Shown piece by piece: positions 27,001 to 30,000 of a DNA stretch of 64,000 nucleotides (within the stretch, counting starts at the first letter, position 1; every line of letters starts with the position of its first letter). The position numbers are program-made. Source of the stretch: Planctomycetota bacterium (GTDB taxonomy: Bacteria > Planctomycetota > Phycisphaerae > WQYP01); NCBI GenBank assembly GCA_021808485.1, contig JAKBBN010000001.1, forward strand, positions 18,799-82,798. Reading direction: 5' to 3'.

Positions 27001-30000
27001 AAGAATAATCCGATGTGGAAAAAATGGCGCGCCGACGGCGACAGCTACCTGTTTGTACTGGCCCAACTGCCTGGAATTCGCCAGGATATGCCCGGCACGC
27101 AGGACCCGCGCCGCCTCATTCTTCCCCTTAAAAAATCCCGCTGGCCGGATTCCGCCAATCCCATACGGATCATGATTAAAAACAGCGGCGTGGTATGCCA
27201 GACTCCGCCCAAGTCCAAAAGCTGACGGCGGCGCTGCCGCCGCGCCGCATGGCGAATATTCGGGAATAAAACGGTGCCTGTTTTCGGCGAATATACGACC
27301 GATCGCATCGCAGCCCGGCAGGCCGGATGCGTGCTGTACACCTTACCGGATTCCTCCCGGTGCCTGCTGGCTTTGGACCCGCCGCCGGAAAGCCTGCCCG
27401 CGGTTCGGCTGCGCGCCAATCAATCCGCGTTCATAGCCCGCTGTGATCTGCAACGCAGTCTTGCCGAAGTCTCGCCGCGCTGGGCGCGGGTTTATGATCT
27501 TCAACCGCTGGAATCCGGCGCCGCATTTTGCGTCATGGATCGCATGGATTGGCCTCTCCACCGGTTTATCCGCCTGAATATCAAACCCTCCCCCGCCGAT
27601 CTCCATCATCTGGTGACGGAAATTCTTGAAGCGCTGCTGGACGCCCAATCCCACACCGGTCGATCCCACGGAAACCTCCGCGCTGAATATATATGGGCCT
27701 CCCAATCTCCCGCGGCCGGGTCCGCCGTCGTGCTGGGCCTGCCGCGGGCATCCGTGTTTGATTCCGCCGAGGCTGAATCCCAGGACCTGCTGCAACTCGG
27801 CCGCCTGATATGCGAACTCGTCGCATCACGCCGCTGGACAACCGCCGCCCCGCTGGATCCGTCCATGCCGGAATTCCGCTCCCTTGGCGCCATCGGCCGC
27901 CGCTGGGCGGATTTCTGCCGCTTTCTCCTTAATACCGATCTCCCGGCGGATCAACGTAATCTTGAGCTTGCGCTCAAACAGGCCGCGGCGCTTAAACCCC
28001 CAAAAAGCCGCGCCCCGCTTATTGCGGGCCTCGCCGCCGCCCTCTGCCTTATTATCGCCGCCGCCGCAGGCTATATTCATCACCAGCGAACCATTGCGGA
28101 AATGTCCCGGTTCAACGGCGCCTATCCGGCCTATGCCGCCGCGTACCATGACTGGTTCAAGGATTTTACCCACGATAAAAAAGCACTCGCCGCCATTCCC
28201 GCCTTAGCGCCCATTAACGCCGCCGTCAAAAAGGGAATCGTTCTTGACCCCAACAATATTCTTCATGAATTCACCGGCCTGCTTTCCCCCGCCCAGATAC
28301 AAAAAGACCTTGCCGCCCATCCGCACCAGTCGCAGCAGCTCGGCCGCGCCGTGGTGCTGCTGATGCGAACCCAGCGCATTCTCGCCGGCCTTCACCTGCA
28401 ATTAACCACGATCCATAATCGCTGGGAACACCGCGGCTGGTCCACCGCCGCCGCGGCACTCTCCGCACAACTGCTGGCGCCGCTTGAAGCGGACACTTCC
28501 ATGATTCCGTTTCTACGTCTGCATAGCGCCGCATGGGCGGCGGATACTCACCTTGTGAAACTTCATCTGGCCGGCAGCGGCATGCCCGCCTCCGGCTGGC
28601 TGACCCAAACCGCGGACGCTCTGCAGGCCGACAAACTGTGGCCGCGGCTTTCGCAGGCCGTCAAACCATTCATTGCGGACAATCACCCTCTCATCGCCCG
28701 CTTTGTCCCCTACGCCCAGCAATACCTCGCCGCCGCACCGGATGCCGCCGCGATCGCCCTGCGCGAGCGCCAACTCCTGTCCGCCGCCCAACGCCAGACG
28801 CTGGCGCTGACCCGCTATGGCAATTCCATCCGCTGGGACCTCGTCGCCCGACTGCCGCCGCCCGGTAACCAGCTGCCGCCCAACCGCTATTTTCCCGATC
28901 TGTCCGGTTATCGATCGCTCACCGGTGCGGACAATCCCTACACCCGCCTCAAACCGCTGTTTACCGCCCAGGCCGCAGCCATCGCCCGCAATATCGCCCA
29001 TGCCCGGCGGCTTCCTAAAAAGCCCACCGTCAATTATCAGGCCATGCTGCTCAAATCGGAAAATTTGTTTCAAGGCCTTTCCAATCACAATCTCTGGATA
29101 TGGAAAAATCACCGCATGTTGACCGTCAAAGCACAGACGGCCCTTGCCGACCTGCAATCGCTTAACAACGCCGTGACCGCTTTCATTAATTCACAAATCA
29201 ACGTTCGCAAATGGGTCGCCCAGCTTCTTGGCTATCAGCCGCCCGCCGGCCGTGATCCGATTAACCCCGGCATCCTGCGGATTTCCGCCATCCCCGCGGT
29301 CAATTCCGTTTACCGCTCCAAAGTGCAACAACTCCTGTATGCCCCGGGAATACCCCCTCAAAATCTACTCCGGCCGGACGCCGCAAATTATCAGTCCCTG
29401 GTTACCGCCCTGCGACAGCGCCGCTGGCAAATTCCGGATATTACACATCGCATCGCCGCCGTCCGCGGTGCGCTGCAATTGCTCATCGCAAAGGATTTCC
29501 CCGCAGGCCCGCCCGCCTCCGCCATGCAAAACACACCGCCCTGGGTTACGTCCGTCCTTAATACCGCGGTGCTGCCCGCCCGCGCTGCCGCCGTCAGCCG
29601 TGCGTTCGCCGGCCTGCATTGGACAAACCTTGTTCCGCAGCTTCCCTCCGGCCCTGTCCGCCGATGGAACACCCGGAATTCCGCCTTTATCCGGCTTGCA
29701 ACAACCGTCCGCACCCTGCAATCCGCATTGCGGGAGTGCCGGCTATTCAATCAGCCCATCAACGGCCGCCCCGGTATCGCCGATCTTTATACCCAGGCGC
29801 GCGCCAATTCCTGGTGGACCGCACCTGCCGTCAACACCGCCCTGGCCGCGGACAAACAGAATCTGCGGCAATTGGCGGCAATTCAAAATGCCCCGCTTTC
29901 AACGCTTGCCGCTCTGTACAACAGCCCGCAAGGCACAACCGCCGGATCGCCGGTGCTCGTCCGCGCGATATGGCATCGGCTGGGCCTGCTGCCCGCCGGA

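Follow-up and report, generated by a model that had tools for sequence, protein, structure and literature searches.

A putative receptor-like pseudokinase encoded near type VI secretion genes in a Planctomycetota bacterium

The locus described here raises the question of whether a protein that reads HGNL at the position where protein kinases read HRDL is a kinase by fold, whether it can still be one by activity, and what it may do beside a secretion machine. The protein is encoded in a stretch of 64,000 nucleotides (hereafter the window; positions 18,799 to 82,798 of contig JAKBBN010000001.1, assembly GCA_021808485.1, from a Planctomycetota bacterium) by a gene located at 27274..31581 on the plus strand, downstream of type VI secretion system (T6SS) genes, which starts with GTG and gives a bitopic membrane protein of 1435 aa. 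To our knowledge, what has been learnt about the control of T6SS firing by post-translational means comes almost entirely from the PpkA-PppA-Fha phosphorylation pathway of proteobacteria with its TagQRST input, and we know of few examples of bacterial pseudokinases. The N-terminal domain (27274..28014, aa 1-247) is, in all probability, a catalytically dead pseudokinase of the Hanks type, judging from its aligned residues, and we lean towards explaining the protein as a whole as a receptor-like pseudokinase which would act as a trans-envelope accessory of the T6SS independently of phosphorylation.

The kinase homology of this domain is not visible in direct searches. Neither the whole protein nor aa 1-259 has a match in Pfam (including Pkinase) or NCBIfam at E<=1, a phmmer search of all PDB chains with the whole protein returned nothing at E<=10, and the only PDB match of a clade-only profile, built from the 10 closest N-terminal domains, was to an antibody by chance (E 0.34). 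An exhaustive hidden Markov model (HMM) search with the clade profile, which covered 1.84 billion cluster representatives, found at least 622 related clusters (50% identity) at E<=1e-3, of which 317 remain at the stricter limit of E<=1e-10, and reached a wider family at E 1e-20 to 1e-39. Most proteins of the wider family are 1300-1900 aa long with the kinase-like domain at the N-terminus, and their catalytic loop overwhelmingly reads HGNLK[PA][ST]N[VI] (consensus HGNLKPSN), which by its sequence appears as an unmistakable relative of HRDLKPxN. A combined family profile, made from a 44-sequence alignment with the window protein included, matches pneumococcal StkP in the PDB at E 1.7e-11 with HGNLK placed on HRDLK, further matches, at 1e-7 to 1e-4, being to PknA, PknB, PknE and phosphorylase kinase. 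When the family was compared with an active Hanks domain by hhalign, the alignment began at the Gly-rich loop, ended in alphaI and took in 230 columns (probability 97.4%, E 1.3e-11); the clade-only profile against one active kinase gave the same register at a level that is not significant (1%, E 0.05). HMMER and hhalign both put HGNL(K/R) on the HRDLK of active kinases.

Conservation follows the same motifs. In 11 full-length orthologues of the protein, R130 and H132-G133-N134-L135-R136-A137-E138 are invariant, and so is the stretch D171-L172-x-Q-L-G-R-x-I-C-E181. The HGNL match is more than chance, because the motif is invariant across orthologues that are only 48-59% identical overall, is kept in the wider family and is aligned on HRDLK. 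The domain has the bilobal kinase fold, with a beta-rich N-lobe carrying alphaC and a helical C-lobe. A real Hanks-type kinase fold is therefore supported via the family profile and the structure, since the Pkinase HMM finds no match in the protein itself; fold and profile place the domain in the kinase superfamily, its sequence similarity to kinases being transitive through the wider family and direct similarity being absent. The original prediction, made for 27274-28050 (aa 1-259, that is, the whole cytoplasmic domain and the start of the transmembrane helix), had called this region kinase-like, and it was correct by this indirect route; the comparison with the Pkinase HMM that it had proposed as a check failed.

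The loss of catalytic residues was followed column by column in 152 domains of the wider family and 11 members of the window's clade. In the Gly-rich loop, RQAGCV of the window protein is aligned to GRGGMG and has one Gly left, the loop of the wider family being reduced to one or two. The beta3 strand RCLLALD (27358..27378, aa 29-35) is aligned to VAIKV with Leu32 at the site of the VAIK lysine, which is Lys in 133/152 of the wider family and Leu in all 11 clade members. In alphaC the StkP Glu falls on Arg56, in a column that is variable in the family, with an acidic residue common one position earlier. The degenerate catalytic loop HGNLRAEYIW (27667..27696, aa 132-141), contained in SHTGRSHGNLRAEYIW (aa 126-141, nt 27649-27696) with HGNL at aa 132-135, is aligned to HRDLKPxNIL. 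Its His is found in 149/152 domains and is kept in the clade, and the position of the HRD Arg is Gly in 146/152 and in the clade. The position of the catalytic Asp is occupied by Asn in 128 and by Asp in five of the 152, and by Asn in all 11 clade members (N134). The catalytic-loop Lys is present in 127/152 and replaced by Arg throughout the clade (R136), and the Mg-binding Asn is present in 144/152, the clade having six Asn, four His and one Tyr, with Tyr139 in the window protein.

The stretch equivalent to DFG is LGLPRAS (27733..27753, aa 154-160), where the wider family reads L-[TS]-D-P (Asp in 141/152, Pro in 142/152) and the clade has seven Asn, two Ala, one His and one Leu. The register was taken from the pattern of a hydrophobic strand with a D, and HMMER-style and hhalign alignments differ in it by about 3 residues. 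The window protein has Leu156/Gly155 here, within VVLGLPRAS. Further on, the subdomain IX-like motif DLLQLGRLICELV of alphaF (27784..27822, aa 171-183) is aligned to DIYAMGIIFYEM of StkP and keeps the Asp-x4-Gly pattern (Asp in 149/152 and Gly in 130/152; D171 and G176 in the clade). The activation loop, the P+1 loop and APE are missing, because only about 16 residues lie between the DFG equivalent and subdomain IX, where StkP has about 41, and the hhalign alignment with the active kinase has a 37-column gap at the activation segment, which is thus shorter by some 25-37 residues. In kinases this segment is normally a place of substrate binding.

It is the combination of L32, N134, R136, Y139 and L156 with the deletion in the activation segment that makes the domain a pseudokinase. 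Read from these columns, the whole family is predicted to be without a catalytic base; nucleotide binding would still be feasible in the wider family, and the window's clade appears to have lost, besides the catalytic Asp, all ATP and Mg ligands. A conventional HRD or DFG elsewhere in the domain was also considered as a candidate, and the alignments, which span the N-lobe to alphaI, show no second one. The original prediction had described a segment aligned with HRDLKPENI and lacking the catalytic Asp, LGLPRAS at the DFG position, and on this basis a likely pseudokinase serving as a signalling scaffold and not as an active kinase. The motifs, the fold and the inactivity stood up, the last with the beta3 Lys, the HRD Asp, the loop Asn and the DFG Asp all replaced, and the VAIK lysine and Gly-rich loop that it had proposed to examine turned out to be degenerate too; the scaffold part is still a matter of interpretation. 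The T6SS surroundings, the FGE-like periplasmic domain and the second, predicted kinase-fold partner described below go beyond that prediction.

The domain could in principle still be an enzyme, either an atypical kinase or a nucleotide-dependent transferase with non-canonical residues, as WNK, CASK, SelO and some HGD/HxN kinases work with such residues. The wider family retains the Lys of beta3, both the Lys and the Asn of the loop, and the DFG-like Asp at the frequencies given above, and a few of its members (P0013, P0027, P0099) read HGD, so that nucleotide binding is plausible there; one such cluster is labelled 'serine/threonine protein kinase' in IMG. For the window protein, where each of these residues is replaced, we regard an enzymatic function as very improbable.

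As to how such a domain is mounted in the membrane, the GTG start of the gene is supported by the MPxFGxY N-terminus, which is conserved in all relatives, and the translation of the open reading frame 27274..31581 includes LLDAQSHTGRSHGNLRAEYIWASQSPAAGSAVVLGLPRASVFDS. The pseudokinase domain is followed by a single transmembrane helix with the N-terminus inside (28018..28080, aa 249-269; Kyte-Doolittle window maximum 2.39), which is the sole hydrophobic segment in four orthologues on the same scale. Since there is only one helix, KPPKSR stands directly N-terminal to it and a hydropathy scan of the protein found no signal peptide, we infer from the positive-inside rule that aa 1-247 are cytoplasmic and the remaining residues, about 1165, periplasmic. 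The latter comprise a region of about 800 aa rich in Ala, Leu, Arg and Pro (28081..30495), defined by its composition and the orthologue alignment and conserved among relatives, in 32 full-length ones of which no Pfam domain was detected there, and a C-terminal FGE-sulfatase-like domain with a SUMF1/C-type-lectin-like fold (30496..31578), recognised through PF03781 in relatives. A scan for promoters and terminators around the gene gave background-level results.

PF03781 was matched at the C-terminus in 25 of the 32 full-length relatives (best 3e-25; 6e-11 in relative P0012); COG1262 is the FGE family. Active FGE is defined by a pair of catalytic, copper-binding Cys near the C-terminus. No conserved pair of this kind was found, the corresponding stretch reading GGSCLSPLG or GGSALAPLG, and because of its absence the domain is apparently non-catalytic as well. 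Pkinase, for comparison, was matched in only four of the 32, one of these matches coming from a separate active domain. Two relatives carry additional N-terminal fusions: P0142 (1675 aa, from a Phycisphaerales metagenome-assembled genome, MAG) has a canonical active Pkinase (HRDIKPGN, DFG; Pfam E 1e-53) ahead of the HGN domain in a JAK-like tandem, and P0113 (1633 aa) has a TIR domain in the same place.

The connection with type VI secretion comes from the surroundings of the gene. The window contains T6SS core and cargo genes on the plus strand (5059..23080) coding for TssB, TssC, Hcp, TagJ/ImpE, TssE, TssF, TssG, ClpV, VgrG, a DUF2169-pentapeptide protein, a pentapeptide protein and a DUF3540 protein (Pfam E 1e-17 to 1e-226). 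Downstream of them lies a set of three genes in the order 646-aa protein, 177-aa lipoprotein, pseudokinase-FGE gene, a set which borders T6SS clusters in Phycisphaerae/Planctomycetota. In all, 17 loci were retrieved from genomes and assemblies (MAGs and metagenome contigs); the three-gene order is kept in 15 of them, and 11 have T6SS core genes within the fetched flanks. The order in relatives is (646-aa protein)-lipoprotein-pseudokinase gene-(about 300 aa)-tssK-tssL-tssM, with tssK-tssL-tssM following directly in L010, L003 and L016, and with the lipoprotein and the pseudokinase gene followed by these three genes in L010, L024, L028, L034, L036, L038, L045 and L070. Because tssK-tssL-tssM adjoin the set in related MAGs and are absent from the 64 kb, the T6SS locus is taken to be split in the genome of the window. 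A metagenome scan with the HGNLKPSN alignment added 80 loci, 67 strong ones of which were subjected to a local HMM census; among the 21 with long flanks, 13 have T6SS core genes, usually tssK-tssL-tssM just downstream. Some paralogues sit elsewhere, yet the association with core T6SS genes is strong. All the clade members in GTDB genomes are from Planctomycetota/Phycisphaerales MAGs, and the named members of the wider family are from Phycisphaerae.

It might be supposed that the gene has no T6SS role and belongs either to a general envelope-sensing receptor or to the cargo and immunity genes that occupy the variable end of T6SS clusters. It does stand after a cargo region (VgrG-DUF2169-pentapeptide-DUF3540-PAAR) and a reverse-strand CxxCxxCC gene, 8 of the 21 long-flank metagenome loci have no T6SS core gene, and relatives carry other fusions (TIR, active kinase). 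However, the order of the set and its neighbourhood of core genes (tssK-tssL-tssM, ClpV, VgrG) are kept across relatives that are 25-40% identical, unlike in effector/immunity cassettes, and an N-in bitopic protein of 1435 aa with a cytoplasmic domain is implausible as a secreted effector. We therefore find this explanation improbable, and on the gene context an accessory role of the 1435-aa protein in the T6SS seems probable.

The lipoprotein gene (26692..27225, plus strand, lipobox LAGC) is immediately upstream of the pseudokinase gene. A lipoprotein is directly upstream in 16/16 loci where the upstream open reading frame was sought, is present in 16 of the 17 loci by HMM census (absent only from L009), and is upstream in 44 of the 62 metagenome loci with enough flank. 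A homologue search returned 10 proteins, all of them unannotated; no member has a match in Pfam, NCBIfam or PDB sequences, and the profile gave chance matches only against the PDB. Its lipobox, its mature size of about 155 aa and its placement upstream of tssK-tssL-tssM are TssJ-like traits, and it can be considered a candidate divergent TssJ or an analogue of TagQ.

If it were TssJ, the whole set could belong to the structure of the T6SS membrane complex, in which the periplasmic region of the large protein, FGE-like domain included, bridges the inner-membrane TssL/TssM to the outer membrane like the FGE-fold PorK in the type IX ring and the dead kinase is a fixed docking platform for the baseplate. 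The fha-tssJ-tssK-tssL order is common in canonical clusters (P. aeruginosa H1, V. cholerae) and is mirrored by the gene order in relatives; the annotated loci have no recognisable TssJ; PorK/GldK are among the weak FGE-fold matches; and the core of the system for type VIIb secretion (T7SSb) holds a membrane pseudokinase, YukC/EssB. Against this, the lipoprotein shows no Pfam match to T6SS-SciN/TssJ at E<=10 in eight members and no PDB sequence match, and some family members have no T6SS genes nearby. Sequence alone does not separate the structural from the regulatory model, and a purely structural role, the chief of the alternatives, is in our opinion unlikely, at perhaps one chance in several.

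The other partner, a cytoplasmic orphan protein of 646 aa (24702..26642, plus strand), is conserved as well, being found in 18 of 27 metagenome loci, and has a predicted kinase-like fold. No member has a match in Pfam, NCBIfam or PDB sequences, its profile matches PDB chains only by chance, and Foldseek of the model against the PDB gave no significant match, with matches to a beta-barrel sub-domain at E ~0.01. The protein has LVDFG at about aa 340-344, with D342 invariant in seven aligned homologues and G344 near-invariant in a larger 33-sequence alignment, RPLLNL at the expected position of the catalytic loop, and DSAYDLYALAVLGLRAL with an invariant D488, resembling subdomain IX. Aligned by hhalign to the pseudokinase family, the 646-aa family does not reach significance (0.3%); the alignment has just this register, with RPxLNL on HGNLK and LxDxG on LTDP. 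No conserved beta3-type Lys and no HRD Asp could be identified in it. A kinase fold in the 646-aa protein is thus a good lead provided by the predicted model.

Returning to the receptor-like pseudokinase as a T6SS accessory, the following scheme can be proposed. The FGE-like domain and the lipoprotein would read or contact the outer envelope. Through contacts between proteins, by dimerisation or docking, the dead kinase domain would relay this into the cytoplasm, where its likeliest partners are the 646-aa protein of predicted kinase fold, the baseplate and membrane complex of TssK-L-M, or both. An envelope cue or position would in this way be coupled to the T6SS, with control of the site or timing of its assembly as the outcome, and the protein would be a counterpart of the TagQ/TagR-PpkA-Fha pathway that works without phosphorylation. 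This particular signalling scheme is tentative. Equally speculative is the broader suggestion that the three genes, coding for a soluble kinase-fold protein, an outer-membrane lipoprotein and a membrane pseudokinase joined to a TagR-like FGE domain, form an unrecognised phosphorylation-independent trans-envelope T6SS module of Phycisphaerae/Planctomycetota, which would replace TagQRST-PpkA-Fha and possibly TssJ and Fha, and in which two dead or atypical kinase folds would pair across the inner membrane, so as to set off assembly or to place it.

Several observations weigh against reading the gene as a T6SS pseudokinase receptor. The AlphaFold model has low confidence over aa 131-164, the region of the catalytic loop, and because of this the equivalences of HGN with HRD and of LGLP with DFG come from the sequence alignments. 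The FGE-like domain of the window protein itself has no Pfam match at E<=1, and a profile of the last ~375 residues, which found only FGE-fold chains in the PDB (FGE, EgtB, CalU17, PorK/GldK), did so at marginal E (1e-3 to 0.7). No TssA, TssJ, TssK, TssL or TssM gene lies within the window, the link to the T6SS is one of gene neighbourhood, and, besides the eight wider-family loci already mentioned as having no T6SS gene, some have no lipoprotein. That the three proteins interact physically is assumed from their synteny, the likeness to TagR considered below is one of domain class, and all the source organisms are uncultured, known as MAGs.

Among the other features of the window, the cargo-like module after VgrG (17568-23504, plus strand) includes a DUF2169 and pentapeptide-repeat protein (864 aa), a 674-aa pentapeptide/decapeptide-repeat protein, a DUF3540 protein and a Tox-PAAR-like protein, an arrangement that resembles TagAB-type pentapeptide accessory genes. 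The gene of the CxxCxxCC protein, putatively Zn/Fe-chelating (23575-24330, minus strand), interrupts the same-strand T6SS array before the three-gene set and occupies the same spot in L001 and L002. A sigma-70 family gene is located at 34296-35096. In L007 (19265-23035), a related T6SS locus, the genes after pseudokinase-FGE code for an orphan of 1238 aa, a sigma-70-like protein, an active 746-aa Ser/Thr kinase and Hcp, an order which recalls the ECF sigma/PknS control of the Xanthomonas T6SS. GC skew is markedly negative over 22000-44000 of the window (-0.12 to -0.24), the first 22 kb having values of about -0.05 to -0.09, and the stretch at 24-32 kb has a slightly raised GC content of 0.61-0.62.

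We are thus dealing with a family of at least 622 clusters (50% identity) which keeps the architecture of a receptor kinase and a periplasmic domain of the FGE/TagR class without catalysis, and to which two more orphan genes are linked, the product of one of them apparently kinase-folded. Profile libraries (Pfam, NCBIfam) overlook this kinase family. If the module regulates or builds the T6SS, what is conserved can be the scaffold of the kinase instead of phosphorylation; this would give a function to three orphan families and would extend bacterial pseudokinase biology to a Gram-negative secretion system. In the literature searched, no description of the HGN family or of a membrane pseudokinase in the T6SS was found, so the family is considered undescribed, membrane pseudokinases of secretion systems being already known for T7SSb (YukC/EssB).

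Among the known systems to compare are eukaryotic receptor pseudokinases without an activation loop, such as plant NFR5/LYR and IRAK3, with which only the fold is shared. EssB/YukC of the T7SSb core and the MviN/MurJ pseudokinase of M. tuberculosis are alike in having a kinase fold that serves for non-catalytic docking on the cytoplasmic side of a membrane protein in a secretion or envelope system, but they have no sequence relationship to the HGN family, other extracytoplasmic domains and other machines. The fusions of Pkinase and PF03781 have the same kinase fold, transmembrane helix and extracytoplasmic FGE-like domain; they are, however, recognised by Pfam and keep their catalytic motifs, whereas the HGN family has no Pkinase match even in the best-preserved P0050 and P0016 and has the additional 800-aa periplasmic region. 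The closest counterparts in function would be those of the threonine phosphorylation pathway. PpkA/TagE (PDB 5hnv), the Hanks-type receptor kinase of this pathway, is likened to the window protein by the T6SS cluster and the N-in bitopic topology, but the latter has no catalytic residues, and no FHA (Fha/TagH) or PP2C (PppA) domains were found in the Pfam-annotated neighbourhoods of six loci. PpkA is described as a T6SS receptor kinase and TagR, listed as COG1262, as its periplasmic activator working with the lipoprotein TagQ (PMC13584744), and PpkA of A. citrulli contacts TssJ/L/M and is localised independently of catalysis (PMC12607579). As in TagR/TagQ of the P. aeruginosa H1-T6SS, a non-enzymatic periplasmic FGE-family domain is encoded beside a small lipoprotein, the 177-aa lipoprotein being at most a candidate analogue of TagQ. 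TagR, which acts with TagS/TagT, is soluble and a protein of its own, whereas in the window protein the FGE-like domain is covalently joined to the kinase-like receptor on which it would act. The protein may be pictured as a receptor of the PpkA type to which a sensor domain of the TagR type has been fused, with phosphorylation abandoned.

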